DNA of 63,087 nucleotides, the filler included, from Globobulimina sp. (Eukaryota): the NCBI GenBank assembly GCA_003354225.1. It is 26 parts of 26 records of this genome, joined end to end, with 100 filler letters (N's around TTAATTAATTAA, not from the genome) between each part and the next. Parts side by side here need not be neighbours in the genome. Positions count along the whole stretch, not along the records: positions 9,729 to 12,060 come from PIVH01007334.1; 25 more parts are not named here. One strand, given 5' to 3'. Each line of letters opens with the position of its first letter. The first letter of the stretch is position 1. The translations under genes were made by a program, and so were the position numbers. Of this stretch, positions 5,811-12,060 are shown one piece after another. The notes beneath the pieces are model-generated. The model was not told where the DNA came from, ran no database searches, and saw nothing but the letters and a program-made list of their open reading frames with translations.

Positions 5811-6788
5811 ATGTCTATAATAGCATTTGCTATATTATTGATTGGGAATAGTATCGCTGGGCCGTGTGACATCTTCGCATCAGATGGCAATCGTTGTGTG
5901 GCGGCACACAGCACAGTACGAGCACTTTTCTCAGCTTTCAACGGTGCGTTGTATCAAGTGAAGCGAGCCTCTGACAACAGAACCCAAGATATCAATACTG
6001 TATCAGCCGGCGGTGTAGCAAACTCAGCCACTCAAGACTCGTTTTGCAGCGGCACTCATTGTGTAATGCAGAGGATTTACGATCAATCCGGCCTAAAAAA
6101 CCATTTAGACGTCGCTCCAGCGGGCGGATATGTGCATCATGCGGATCTCCCTGTGAATGCCACCCGATTACGCTTGAACGTGGGGGGTAGAGCAGTGTAT
6201 GCCGCCTACTTTGAGGGTGGAATGGGATATCGAGTGGATCGGACAACCGGAGTAGCCACAGGCAATAACGCGGAGACTATGTATATGGTGACCTCTGGCA
6301 AACATTTCAATGGAGGCTGTTGCTTTGATTATGGCAATGCAGAGACCGACAACAACGATGATGGGGCAGGGACTATGGAGGCGATCTATTTTGGCAGCAG
6401 CACAGTATGGGGTCGAGGCTCCGGATCTGGGCCGTGGGTGATGGCAGATATGGAGAACGGGCTGTTTGCAGGAAATGAGAAGGTGAATAACGCGAATACC
6501 CCTCTTACTTCCACCTATGTGTTTGCGATGGTGAAGGGTGGCACGAATGGCTTTGCGCTCAAAGGTGGAGACGCGACCCGTGGATCACTTAAAACCATGT
6601 ACGATGGCGCTCGACCCGCGGGATATCAGCCAATGAGAAAACAGGGTGCCATCATTCTCGGCATTGGAGGCGATAATTCTAACTCTGCCACAGGCACATT
6701 CTTCGAAGGCGCCATGACGACGGGGTATACATCAAACAACGCGGATAACTCCGTATTTGCCAATGTTGTAGCTGCGAGATATGGATAA
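5811..6788 (+). CDS. abfB: Secreted alpha-L-arabinofuranosidase B, GH54 catalytic domain only (no CBM42)
   Basis: Signal peptide, then GPCDI..CVAAHST.RAL, IYDQSG, GCCFDYGNAE, GTMEAIYFG, GPWVMADMENGLF, GAIILGIGGDNS and GTFFEGAMT, all GH54 signatures. Intronless. Confidence 0.95.
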   Translation: MSIIAFAILLIGNSIAGPCDIFASDGNRCVAAHSTVRALFSAFNGALYQVKRASDNRTQDINTVSAGGVANSATQDSFCSGTHCVMQRIYDQSGLKNHLDVAPAGGYVHHADLPVNATRLRLNVGGRAVYAAYFEGGMGYRVDRTTGVATGNNAETMYMVTSGKHFNGGCCFDYGNAETDNNDDGAGTMEAIYFGSSTVWGRGSGSGPWVMADMENGLFAGNEKVNNANTPLTSTYVFAMVKGGTNGFALKGGDATRGSLKTMYDGARPAGYQPMRKQGAIILGIGGDNSNSATGTFFEGAMTTGYTSNNADNSVFANVVAARYG

Positions 6789-7148: not shown

Positions 7149-7296
7149 AAAATGTTGTGAATTGCGATGTTTTCTTCTTTTGTATTATTATATTGCNNNN
7201 NNNNNNNNNNNNNNNNNNNNNNNNNNNNNNNNNNNNNNNNTTAATTAATTAANNNNNNNNNNNNNNNNNNNNNNNNNNNNNNNNNNNNNNNNNNNN

Positions 7297-9304
7297 AAGA
7301 GAAACTTTGGATTTTACACTGGGCACCACTGAAATTCTTGTTTGGTTTGCCATTTATAGGGTTGTAGCCATGTTCGAACTCGTTTTTTGTCATAACACTC
7401 GGATGTGAATGTACTGTCGATCCATGGAACTCGAAAGAATACCCCTGTTGTCTTCCTTTCTTATCTTTGTCCATCACTATCCATCCATCGAGGCGAGCCG
7501 TTTTCCCATGGGGCAGGGACAGGGTCTTCTCTCCCCTCATACCCAATATCGTTTGTATAGGTTTTTTGTCGTGTTTGAATGTGGCCTGATACCTCAACCA
7601 ACACAGCGCCATTAGTCCTCGTTCTTGGACCGAGTCCAGACAGAAATCCTCCTTCTTTTCTCGAATAGCATACGAACCAAGGACTGGACATTCGAATGTA
7701 CAGGACGATCCATACAGACAGTTGAAATCGAACAGTAGAATATTTTGCACCATTTCGGGATCCTCGAAGATATGGGGCAATATCTTGGTATAGCCGGCGA
7801 CACCTAGTCGTTTTCGTATGGTCGAGGCTCCACCACGTATATTGGAATCGATCAGTTTGAAGGCCTTCGGTCCTAACTGGACAACATAGTCGCAAGAGGG
7901 TTCTTCGTCATATTCGGCCAGATGTTTCAGGGCCCACGAGTAGCTTAAACTGGGCAAGGTGTTGAACTCGAGCATGTCGATATTGGCCAACTTTTTGAAT
8001 GATTCCTTCATCCGTTCCACAGATATCAAAGCTCCGAGACAATCCACCGAACAGTACAAGGGTAGGTAATGCCATATTTCGGTCATGTTTTTGTCGGTCC
8101 ACAATTCCTTCAAAGTTTCAAACTTGACCGGCCCCGGTTGAGGTTCGTCCGTTCTTTTGAGCATCTTCAACGCCTTTTCCTTGTCGACACCTTTTTTGAT
8201 GTATATTTGATACTTTTCATAGGCCGTATTTAGAGTGTTAGTTTGTTTCAGGTTCGACCAAAAATCCTCATATCTCACCTCCGACAATGGTATATGCAAA
8301 TCTTTGGGGCTTTTCATCAATTCGTATGGAAACTCTAATTTGCTGAATCTATCAGGGACCCCGTATGCGTAGAGGAAATCTGGAAGGGAGACACGGGCGT
8401 TTACAAATCTGAGTATGTCCAAAAATCGAAAATAATCCGATGTCAACGCGATCCATTTCTTACTCTTTTTCAATACCCTGGGTTTCTTTTTTTCCAGATT
8501 GTATATGTACCAAGGTAGGCCATAGTTACAGAGACAGGTGAGATCGAAATTGGAATTGTAAAACAACACCACAAAACGTTGAGCATTCTCGTGTAGTATA
8601 TCCCTTAGCTTTTTCAATATGGTTTCTCTGCCAACTTTTTTCTCCTCGGTAGCTTCTTTGATCAACTGGTCCACTTTGTCGAACGTTTCTTTGTTATCTT
8701 TTATAGTTTGGGCGTAGGCTGCTTCGGACATTGTTTGTAAATACTGGACAAACGTTTCGACAAAACTAGATCCACCGTCCATGCCAAGAAAACATATACT
8801 GGTATTTAATTGTTTTTCCTTCAAATTTGAGACGATCGATACCGCTACCGGCGTATGGTGGTCCATCATCATGGTCAAGGGGTGTAGACGAAGGGCCGCT
8901 TCGGACAACTCTTGTTGGTCTCTGTCGATTTTCTGACCGAGCAATGTCTCAATGTCAGCCACCGCGAAGTACTTGTTCAGTTCAAAATCCTCCCCAGGAT
9001 CGATCCCATTGTACAGCAATCTGTCTTTGATGGTCCAGCGGGCCTTTACCCTCGCTCCTTTGAAATGATTTTTGGGCTTCTCAGTCAATAGTTCATCCTG
9101 CAAGTACTGCTGCATATCGACATTTGGATCATCTTGGACCAGCGCCAATGTGCGACATTTCTTCTTATGCATATGAAAATCCAGTCTCTGTCTCGTAAAG
9201 AAAGTTTTACTGCAATAAGGACAATCGAATTCTTGCAACAATGTATTAAGTTTCTTCAACACACTGTATCGTCCATCTTGACTTATCGTTGGAGCCGAAA
9301 TCAC
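7297..9304 (-). mobile_element. polB: Protein-primed family B DNA polymerase of Polinton/Maverick or polinton-like-virus type, partial
   Basis: C2H2-like finger (CPYC..H), Exo I AVADIET, Exo II FYNSNFDL, FLDILRF, FPYE, Exo III YCSVD, IRGG, motif A FDFNCLYG, and an inserted VSR-like nuclease (RLDG...FEFHG..HSHP). Intronless, more GC-rich than typical host DNA. Confidence 0.88.
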
Positions 9305-9930
9305 CGAGACTTCGTCGTTATTAACTCGACCAAAGCCCTGGTGGTGTCAGCCAGAAGTGCCGGTTAGCCGCAGGCTACCGACGCGAAAGGTCTGCACAGC
9401 TCACTGCTCGCAAACTCAACATTCACGCGCTACTATTCATCTGCTAGTATAGGCTCTCGCGTGTGTTCAGTAGATGAATTCTTCACGCGTTTATGTGGCG
9501 CCAGAGATGCGATCCAGTTTGTGAGCCAGGGGGTTTCCATCCGCTTGGATCTTAACCTGAATCTGCTACCAAATGTAGTAGCCCCAAGCTACTACTTATA
9601 ACAAACAATATAACAAAATAAATTGTAANNNNNNNNNNNNNNNNNNNNNNNNNNNNNNNNNNNNNNNNNNNNTTAATTAATTAANNNNNNNNNNNNNNNN
9701 NNNNNNNNNNNNNNNNNNNNNNNNNNNNTATCATAATTTGCTGTTATCCATGGAACCCAACTGTTAAGTATTTAAATATCCAAAATTGAACTCACCAACA
9801 TACAATAACACAGTATACACACAATAAACACAAAATAAAAATAAAAAACACTATAGAAACCGCCCGCCACCGCCACACCAACACCACCACCACCAAATAC
9901 ACTCAAAACATGCTATTTTTACTCACAAAC

Positions 9931-10318
9931 GATTATCAATTAATAACTTATTGATAGAGTATGGAATTAATGGATTTGAATGAGAGAGAGAGTGGCATTC
10001 ATTTAATGGGTCGAGAGATGAATATATAATGTTTGTATGAGACATGTGGGATGCGAGGCGCTACGCGCCATCACACCCACAGTCCCAACAACCATATATA
10101 TCATCTCCAACCCATAAATATGAATTTAATGGCTTGAGATATGAATATATAATGATTGTATGAGACATGTGGGATGCGAGGCGCTACGCGCCATCACACC
10201 CACAGCCTCAACAATCATATATATCATATCCAACCCATAAATATCATTAAATACAACTCTCTCCTCATCAAATATCATTAAGTTCCAACTCTACAAACAG
10301 TTATCTATATAATAATTC
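9931..10318. repeat. Y-shaped palindromic element: outer inverted repeat enclosing two tandem 123-bp hairpin units
   Basis: Units ~10001-10123 and ~10124-10242, each centred on GGCGC-TAC-GCGCC (10057-10069, 10180-10192). Outer arms ~9943-10000 and ~10245-10304 are imperfectly complementary. Confidence 0.85.
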
Positions 10319-10344: not shown

Positions 10345-12060
10345 TCATAAATCATTTGAGACTATAAATTGTGGCGCAAGTCTTTGCAAAAAAGAAGTTG
10401 CAATGGAATTTGTAGAATTGCTATAAATATGCTTGAATATGCTGTTACGGTATTCTTGCATCTCGAGAATATACTTTTGATGGTCCCTTGCATGTTTCTG
10501 CTTCAATTCCTTCCAATAACGGGGCAAACCTTTTACTTTCTGGCTCAACGGACGTAACAACGGAGACAAGTCGGTGACATTAATATTTCTGAAGTAATCT
10601 TCAAAGAATATGGAAGCCAATGTGTACATCTCTGCTCTATGAAGATCCATCTCGACGGAATAGCAGGAACCATAATATTCTGAATAGCCACATAAATTAT
10701 TCATGTTGGCGTTGGACAGACTGACTTCCAAAGTTGCGTCAAACATAACAGCACAGCCAAAATCTACAAAATAGATTCTCTTCCTATCTTCACTCAGAAT
10801 GATATTATTTGCTGTGATGTCATTATGGATGACACCATAATCGTTATGAATGCTTTCCAAACCATTTGCTAATATATCCCAGTATAAATTGAATAGTCTG
10901 GTTGCCTCAGCAGCGGATAACAAAAATAATTCATTCTCCACAAACTTATTAAAAGTAATATCACCGACATACTGCAAATATAGACGCGGACATTGGTACA
11001 TCTCATAATTGGGAGAGTCTGTATTGTTAAATATAATAACATGTGCAATGGGCACTGCTTTGCTTCGTTTCATCTCAAATCTTAGCAATATTTCCTTTTC
11101 ATGTTCGCATTCTTGCACAGCATTGGTTGTATAAAACGTCTTAACCGCACATAAATAATCAGACACAGAATGGTTCGCTGTTTGTGCTGCCTTCTTTTGA
11201 GTGTACGGCAGCGCTTTCATCTCAATCCATGCATGCTTTCCAGAATGGAATCTTCTCAGTATATATGGTTGCAATTTGCTCATAAAGTCATAGAGTGCCG
11301 GCTCTGTCATCTTATCTTCTTTGACCGCACCGTATAACTCATAAAATAGCTGGTTTCTGTGAGTAGAGACAGCTTCGGGAAGAAACACCAAATAAGTCAT
11401 CAGATTCCGTTTTTGAAGCCGCATTAAATATTCTCGACCAAATGTCAGTTTAAATAAGTTTCTGTACACATTGATATCCGCTAAGTAATCAATCCACGAT
11501 TCTTCCTCAAACTGCACAAAAATTAGATACTCAAAAAACATGGCAGCTAAAGAATATTCGTCCTCATAAATGCCAAATTGAGTGCGTATTTTGGATAAAC
11601 TGGGAGTTGTGGCCACAAATGGATCGTTCAGCATTAATATGAAATTTCTCGACCAACAGGAACCATAAAATGATGGCCCAGAAGTAAAATTTGCTTGTGA
11701 TACTTTCTCAGAATATGCTGAACCAAAATCAATAACACTTATTGTCTCAGTGACGGCATCAAACACCAAATTGTCCGGTTTTATATCATTGTGAATGACG
11801 GGAATGCTATGTAATCTGTGTAGTGTTTCCAGTGATTGCTTCCATAAGAAATCATAGGCGGCAACAGGCACTTTCACTGCATTGAACATTTTAGGAAATT
11901 GGAGGAAAAACTGTTTAAAGGTGTACCCTCCGACATTAGTAATGGTTAAAGTGTTGGTGGAGTCGTTGTGATGTATCAACTGACTTATTTGTAGATTTCT
12001 ATCTGACAATAAAAACAACATTTCTTTCTCATGAAAATAATGGTTTCTTAATTTAAATTG
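10345..12060 (-). CDS. Divergent protein with two tandem protein-kinase-like domains, 5'-truncated
   Basis: IHNDIKPDNL...IDFGS and AVK...IHNDITANNI...VDFG. Confidence 0.8.
   Translation of the reverse strand, partial: QFKLRNHYFHEKEMLFLLSDRNLQISQLIHHNDSTNTLTITNVGGYTFKQFFLQFPKMFNAVKVPVAAYDFLWKQSLETLHRLHSIPVIHNDIKPDNLVFDAVTETISVIDFGSAYSEKVSQANFTSGPSFYGSCWSRNFILMLNDPFVATTPSLSKIRTQFGIYEDEYSLAAMFFEYLIFVQFEEESWIDYLADINVYRNLFKLTFGREYLMRLQKRNLMTYLVFLPEAVSTHRNQLFYELYGAVKEDKMTEPALYDFMSKLQPYILRRFHSGKHAWIEMKALPYTQKKAAQTANHSVSDYLCAVKTFYTTNAVQECEHEKEILLRFEMKRSKAVPIAHVIIFNNTDSPNYEMYQCPRLYLQYVGDITFNKFVENELFLLSAAEATRLFNLYWDILANGLESIHNDYGVIHNDITANNIILSEDRKRIYFVDFGCAVMFDATLEVSLSNANMNNLCGYSEYYGSCYSVEMDLHRAEMYTLASIFFEDYFRNINVTDLSPLLRPLSQKVKGLPRYWKELKQKHARDHQKYILEMQEYRNSIFKHIYSNSTNSIATSFLQRLAPQFIVSNDL

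Follow-up and report, generated by a model that had tools for sequence, protein, structure and literature searches.

A Y-shaped foldback in a Globobulimina sp. assembly as the very probable 5' end of a Crypton-like tyrosine-recombinase transposon

Described relatives and the locus

Crypton DNA transposons were reportedly described by Goodwin in 2003. Integron attC sites are folded single-strand recombination sites with extrahelical bases, the termini of parvoviruses carry tips of the GNA type, and Helentrons combine asymmetric inverted repeats with a terminal hairpin and insert without target duplication. According to the accessible text of the relevant reports, Cryptons lack inverted repeats and have direct repeats of 4-6 bp (PMC3212892, PMC13465315), and an active member, CryptonF-1_cRei, both excises and gains copies (PMC9977147). 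DIRS elements possess an internal region complementary to both ends, together with trinucleotide ends (accessible part of PMC7192593). As far as the available portions of two further papers go, the working site of CTX attP(+) arises when a single strand that carries two inverted sites folds into a forked hairpin (PMC3089051), and the bacterial elements SE-6283 and SE-6945 circularise one strand and multiply (PMC9345347).

The window, by which we mean the whole 63,087-nucleotide stretch of DNA analysed here, is a chain of unrelated contigs of ~2.3 kb joined by linkers (44 N, a 12-base AT palindrome and another 44 N) that recur every ~2430 bases from position 2333; adjacency within it implies no genomic linkage. 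The genome searched was a 70-Mb eukaryotic assembly of 48,370 contigs. The Y-shaped structure, which an earlier note on this DNA had placed at 9931..10318, sits in contig C7334, and we conclude that it is very probably the 5' end of a non-retro, Crypton-like tyrosine-recombinase transposon, itself probably of foraminiferan origin. The first base of the contig (window position 9729) already lies inside the element, so the element's other end is missing in the window copy. What is present is the terminal 586 bp of a copy (9729..10314, minus strand), recognised by similarity to other copies, with identities over the shared part of 95% to L002, 84% to L003 and 87% to L014/L015. Since minus is the recombinase coding strand in the gene-bearing copies, this segment represents the 5' end of the element. 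The structure is present as the note had described it, but its true limits are 9911/9932-10314 on the minus strand. The element is inserted 30 nt past the stop codon of a host gene, an ORF without introns (10345..12021, minus strand) that encodes two divergent kinase domains in tandem. The position 3' of this gene on its sense strand had been read correctly, but the gene is merely a flank, unique to this copy.

In its working the element is Crypton-like: a tyrosine recombinase is its sole gene, reverse transcriptase is absent, many copies are non-autonomous, and a short identity between end and target replaces a target duplication. It nonetheless fails one defining feature of the group, the lack of inverted repeats: a terminal inverted repeat of 16 bp is present, together with a mirror of both ends inside the element and a folded end of 270-390 nt. 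The perfect repeat measures 3 bp, as against the 4-6 bp of Cryptons. On account of the inverted repeat and the internal mirror we class the element as Crypton-like rather than assign it to a described group. With DIRS-1-type elements it shares an internal region complementary to both ends, a trinucleotide at the termini (and, here, at the target), integration by a recombinase and single-stranded DNA intermediates, which for our element are presumed from its anatomy. It has DIRS ends without DIRS genes, however: reverse transcriptase, RNase H, gag and inverted terminal repeats of ~300 bp are all lacking, an intron is kept, and the internal region, which is not an exact complement, belongs to the 5' end.

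As in CTX attP(+) and attC, the stem of a forked hairpin with extrahelical bases is built from two inverted recombination-like sites, and identity with the target is short, so that by analogy the element may work in the same way. Those sites are bacterial and served by the host XerCD or an integron integrase, whereas the element is eukaryotic and has a recombinase of its own, with a hairpin several times longer and bulged every 7-8 nt. A Y outline and GNA-type tips recall parvovirus termini, but the end is integrated with host flanks, no NS1 or capsid gene accompanies it, and the fork is a tandem duplicate missing in two of five copies. SE-6283 and SE-6945 are likewise recombinase elements that multiply and form one-strand circles (putative in our case), but they have four core genes and a 6-bp crossover region, and the accessible part of their description reports no attC-like inverted structure (PMC9345347). 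Searches of the open literature, PMC12130899 included and Repbase reports and subscription journals aside, gave no paper on such a layout in a recombinase-only element. Our study adds a divergent recombinase family, a 3-bp core defined by empty sites, co-variation of mirror and ends between subfamilies, and a ladder of bulges accompanied by GNA loops on one strand.

Copies, junctions and recombinase

The 388-base structure has 15 matches in its own genome; the collection of homologues that the earlier note had called for therefore revealed not a single-copy sequence but a dispersed repeat with varied flanks. Similarity between copies always ends at window position 10314, where nine right junctions adjoin nine differing flanks, and a conserved second end is found at 16 left junctions, all with different flanks (the left ends of L011, which has no flank, and L029, which has a 1-base insertion, were excluded). 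Both ends are present in L003 (1286 bp) and L017 (1796 bp). Each end carries ATA (TAT on the minus strand) as a 3-bp direct repeat, at 10312..10314 in the window copy, with host DNA from 10315. Next to it lies a 7-nt terminal spacer (10305..10311, minus strand), identical in eight of the nine right ends except for one terminal base in L006. Five right-end matches with one mismatch (L039-L043) were without an element end and were rejected.

A search for empty sites, also suggested in that note, found two. In a contig of run X1, L017 position 259 is connected to 2053, and the three letters at the joint could belong to either side; X1 is possibly the source sample, and the intervening letters are marked as not known. 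Runs X3 and X4 hold a paralogue of the L017 site without the element. The L003 flanks, fused at one ATA, align at 82% over 165 columns, gap-free at the junction, to the paralogues L072 and L071/L075 of a host repeat gene. Both tests thus indicate a 3-bp common core without further duplication, at odds with a classical foldback element that duplicates its target. For L017, none of 25 checked places among 41 flank matches in the element's own genome crosses the junction; the flank L017:1-220 is itself a high-copy repeat, the 41 matches being to part of it. The target reads TG-ATA-W, with G at -1 in 16/16, T at -2 in 15/16 and A or T at +1 in 8/9. The 5-mers of end and target match at four of five places, an agreement that near-identical donor and target would also give, while the perfect repeat is only 3 bp. 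We infer that ATA is the crossover core.

Several observations concern individual copies. The first ~120 bases of L006, L008 and L010 are 99-100% identical and their flanks unlike, indicating recent movement. At L012:1-60 the far end is fused into the Y of another copy at TG-ATA-T, either a nested insertion or an amplification chimera, and in L031 (1-1545, minus strand) an alpha-tubulin-like ORF is followed by a remnant of only ~33 far-end bases. A cluster of short GC hairpins at L002:255-312, just ahead of the element-like part, may be a different small element. Short copies carry, in place of the recombinase gene, a variable tandem array of ~50-60 bp units (L003:470-720, L009:450-850, L005:1320-1523 and L012:360-646, but not L015 or L017), every unit with a GAA mini-hairpin on the minus strand. 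A scan of JGI metagenomes for the element ends gave 75 pattern hits, none of them confirmed.

The recombinase gene was found in only two copies in the element's own genome. The ORF is truncated in L017, where just ~240 bp lie beyond the gene end, and whole in L015. It runs on the minus strand and begins ~340 bp inward of the folded end; L015, the one copy found with an unbroken gene, is on a contig that ends short of both element ends. The gene is split by a 60-nt GT-AG intron, and the spliced product of 683 residues has the catalytic motifs R183, K218, H337, R340, H366 and Y375. One homologue with a name comes from Nonionella stella, a foraminiferan, and this, along with the presence of introns in genes, points to a probable foraminiferal host. 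The spliced layout recurs in the named homologue P0024, in which the intron stretch is absent, and six homologues end at approximately the intron position. Retention of the intron speaks against an RNA step. Neighbours in the protein atlas, at 0.94-0.96, were PF00589 (phage integrases), DUF3504 and DUF3435. The structure model of exon 1 (pLDDT 84.6) matched Cre (E 2e-7) and XerA (Z 10.4, rmsd 2.7 over 123 residues), and that of P0024 likewise matched Cre; as modelled, the enzyme is a divergent tyrosine recombinase with a Cre fold.

A HMMER search of 1.84 billion representatives gave 22 hits, among which P0021, a fibronectin protein, was dropped, and the family conserves a CxC-H-C insert past the catalytic lysine. 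It comes from a group with little-described mobile DNA and goes unrecognised by Pfam and PHROGs models: the recombinase fell below every Pfam cut-off, and PHROGs returned nothing for four proteins. DUF3504 was seen in one of 12 family members, below the cut-off at E 0.005, and not in the element's own protein. The own-genome search for DUF3504 gave no match, with controls equally silent, and a word-indexed protein search with exon 1 returned none among 1715 candidates. Reverse transcriptase, RNase H, gag and Rep were all absent from the ORFs of L017 and L015. The genome holds a second, distant member of the recombinase family (L044:3-764, minus strand, E 4e-5), beside which the remainder of L044 is occupied by an unrelated, bacterial-looking ORF; genome-wide, RVT_1 matches number at least 150, and many of them lie in frames that stay open for >1000 codons, so that help in trans is conceivable.

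The folded end and its internal mirror

Folding of both strands placed the Y far beyond chance (z -14 to -17). The minus strand gave -188.4 kcal/mol as RNA (z -16.7) and -103.1 kcal/mol as DNA (z -15.9), the plus strand -157.3 kcal/mol (z -14.0), and in each case 0/100 shuffles equalled the native fold. The outer arms and two tandem units were found where the earlier note had seen them, the units sharing 93% identity at a spacing of 123. On the minus strand, unit 1 (10001..10121) forms a ~55-bp stem with seven single T bulges (10006-10051) and a GTA triloop at 10062-10064, and unit 2 (10124..10244), its tandem duplicate, has seven single T bulges (10129-10174) and a GTA triloop at 10185-10187. 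The outer stem, also given for the minus strand, has an inner arm at 9943..10000, the initial ~17 nt of which are the internal half that mirrors the near end, and an outer arm at 10245..10304, the final 16 nt of which double as the imperfect terminal inverted repeat between the element ends (14/16).

The periodically unpaired A's reported for the plus strand are real: single bulges on the 3' arms of the minus strand are T in 18/18, a count that corresponds to about 11 independent sites because the units are duplicates. CA precedes 12 of these 18 T's. In the minus-strand DNA fold the T bulges are spaced 7, 7, 8, 7, 8 and 8 nt within each unit, and there are four further single-base bulges on the 5' arms and seven G-T pairs. 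The tips read GC-GTA-GC on the minus strand in both units (10057-10069 and 10180-10192), as had been noted. A compensatory pair claimed between the units also held, being G-C in four, T-A in two and broken in two of eight units, but wider covariation within units did not, since 42/500 shuffles attained the score over these eight units. Two columns of the outer stem have changes on both sides. Five copies have an assembled hairpin, with two units in three of them and a single unit in L017 and L005; the long foldback is therefore what matters, and the fork is optional. Judged by sequence, it is unlikely that the one-unit form is an assembly collapse, as the single unit resembles an L003 unit throughout.

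The base of the Y mirrors the joined ends of the element. From 9943 onward it pairs with the near end, and the stretch at 9911..9936 (minus strand) complements the far end, 0.9-1.5 kb away from this mirror; the latter half is unpaired when the element is integrated and paired in the modelled circle. Between the halves is a 6-nt internal spacer (9937..9942, minus strand), which in the folded circle would oppose the terminal spacer of 7 nt, the two making up a loop of mismatches at the centre. The far end differs among three subfamilies, and the internal half changes along with it. In all three copies with both parts the best partner of the mirror was its own far end (-24.8, -12.4 and -23.2 kcal/mol), compared with only -6.9 to -12.1 kcal/mol for the far ends of other subfamilies. 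When the minus strand of L003 was joined in silico at one ATA, the predicted fold reached -118.2 kcal/mol against -97.5 integrated, a gain of 21 kcal/mol, with a duplex that spans the junction and a small mismatched centre of 7 versus 6 nt. For L017, where the far-end pairing is short (-12.4 kcal/mol), the values were -83.4 and -76.0, a gain of 7 kcal/mol; in L002 the internal core is lost. The 15-nt core at 9933-9947 occurs exactly in seven element copies and at two unrelated places, L079 and L080, which are not element copies; matches with one mismatch were set aside as mostly chance (87 versus 53 in the control).

Folding energy and mini-hairpins both favour one DNA strand. The minus strand folds better in 8/8 units, and a change that the window copy has in the mirror gives a G-T pair on the minus strand but a mismatch on the plus strand. 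Across 12 loci scanned whole, C-GNA-G hairpins number 33 on the minus strand and 0 on the plus strand, although the 33, drawn from related copies, represent about four motif types rather than 33 events. They comprise the tips of the Y (GTA) and the internal array of the short copies (GAA and GCA), whose stems have changes on both sides. Hairpins of the GCGNAGC kind are far more stable in DNA than in RNA form and are found at single-strand origins and the N4 promoter, according to the accessible text of PMC13037366. The hint at single-stranded DNA in the earlier note is supported, as are its inference of a selected structure and the mobile element that it named as one option. Two features had escaped that note: the mirroring of the far end by the base of the Y, and the absence of the fork from two of five copies.

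Proposed route and competing explanations

The route that we propose would begin with one strand, the minus, being exposed or copied out. Its two ends would be joined at the 3-bp core to give a single-stranded circle, in which pairing of the internal region across the junction would yield a duplex; this would offer the recombinase two arms around a mismatched centre, with the long hairpin or Y as its cap. At the 3-bp core, the recombinase would then swap one strand pair with a target that is double-stranded, and replication by the host would complete the insertion, so that copies could multiply. It may be that the regular T bulges set strand choice or recombinase contacts, and that they prevent extrusion of the palindrome from duplex DNA; the single strand could be primed or protected by the GNA hairpins. 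The whole mechanism is inferred from anatomy, and no circle or strand exchange was observed: circle junctions numbered 0 in nine right ends, and there was no back-joint in the contigs of four runs; as contigs drop rare forms, this absence counts neither for nor against a circle. Granted that the Y is the end of a recombinase transposon, we consider a single-strand route likely, and the full reading, a recombinase transposon with a single-strand circle that folds into its own recombination site, is in our judgement still probable.

The main rival is the classical Crypton route, in which a double-stranded circle would be excised and reintegrated by two strand exchanges, the mirror being an accessory recombinase-binding site and the hairpin serving promoter control, RNA silencing or stability. 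The Goodwin model and clean Crypton excisions, in the accessible text of PMC3212892 and PMC9977147, favour such a duplex route; a protein-binding site would likewise co-evolve with the ends, and on the coding strand the hairpin does precede the recombinase ORF. Yet end and target share just 3 bp, which is short for two exchanges over a 6-8 bp overlap, and co-evolution of a binding site does not explain why G-T pairs, T bulges and GNA loops favour one strand; we regard this route as unlikely. It is quite improbable that movement is DIRS-like, with a transcript copied by a reverse transcriptase in trans and the mirror splinting or templating the cDNA ends before the recombinase integrates them, even though termini of three nucleotides and an internal region that complements each end are typical of DIRS and a DIRS reverse transcriptase is able to act in trans (both from the accessible part of PMC7192593), reverse transcriptase genes are many in this genome (at least 150 matches) and the fold is very stable as RNA too. 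Neither the whole copies nor L015 contain reverse transcriptase, RNase H or gag, long inverted terminal repeats are missing, the internal region is at the 5' rather than the 3' end, and L015 keeps the recombinase intron, near which six homologues stop.

An HUH enzyme encoded elsewhere in the genome could also move the element in the manner of a Helentron or Replitron, with the recombinase as cargo; asymmetric inverted repeats with a terminal hairpin but no target duplication, and internal arrays of short hairpins, would fit. We find this very improbable, because no gene lies between the ends except that of a recombinase, which has its full catalytic set and was seen in these copies only, because a 3-bp core is common to ends and target as in recombinase elements, and because the gene-bearing copies have no HUH Rep/helicase, only the recombinase. 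That the Y is a structured RNA or 3'UTR element serving the kinase gene, a possibility raised in the earlier note, would suit its place 30 nt past the stop codon on the sense strand, which is also the strand of best fold, but nine right junctions with nine unrelated flanks, some within coding DNA, make this extremely improbable. Rfam likewise offered no family (best E 0.093, far below gathering; 0 matches in four loci). A side effect on the kinase transcript is possible, yet it is not the reason the structure exists. A parvovirus-like terminus conflicts with an integrated end that has host DNA past it in 9/9 right junctions and with a gene for a tyrosine recombinase. An amplification fold-back or assembly artefact is scarcely credible: contigs L006 and L008-L011 do break at the hairpin centre, and L012 may be a chimera, but five diverged copies share the same imperfect hairpin with structure-keeping changes, its arms are not perfect inverted copies, and pieces of it occur in other runs.

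With its ends defined, its 3-bp core established, its recombinase intact and a folded substrate predicted, this family makes the single-strand route testable on short oligonucleotides. Such a route would connect the ends of DIRS elements and the attC/attP(+) chemistry of bacteria with the DNA transposons of eukaryotes, and would provide an enzyme that places single-stranded DNA into a short target. We see an even chance that the element stands for a class of eukaryotic transposons whose only gene is a recombinase and which travel as folded circles of single-stranded DNA, the counterpart in eukaryotes of integron cassettes and CTX phage. Its members would build their own attachment site by pairing the mirror over the circle junction, would require just 3 bp of identity with the target, and would use a T ladder read by the recombinase with its Cys/His insert. 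If so, this could be how Cryptons gain copies, the mechanism so far missing, and the internal complementary region of DIRS elements could have its DNA ancestor here.

Two other places in the window deserve mention in their own right. The ORF at 7241-9346 (minus strand) begins with an N-terminal C2H2-like finger; nothing in it rose above the cut-off in Pfam or PHROGs, and its motifs are reminiscent of what we take to be a protein-primed B-family DNA polymerase of the Polinton type. At 5811-6788 (plus strand) lies an intron-free alpha-L-arabinofuranosidase B catalytic domain (E 2e-135), with GC above its surroundings, which is possibly an acquired gene.
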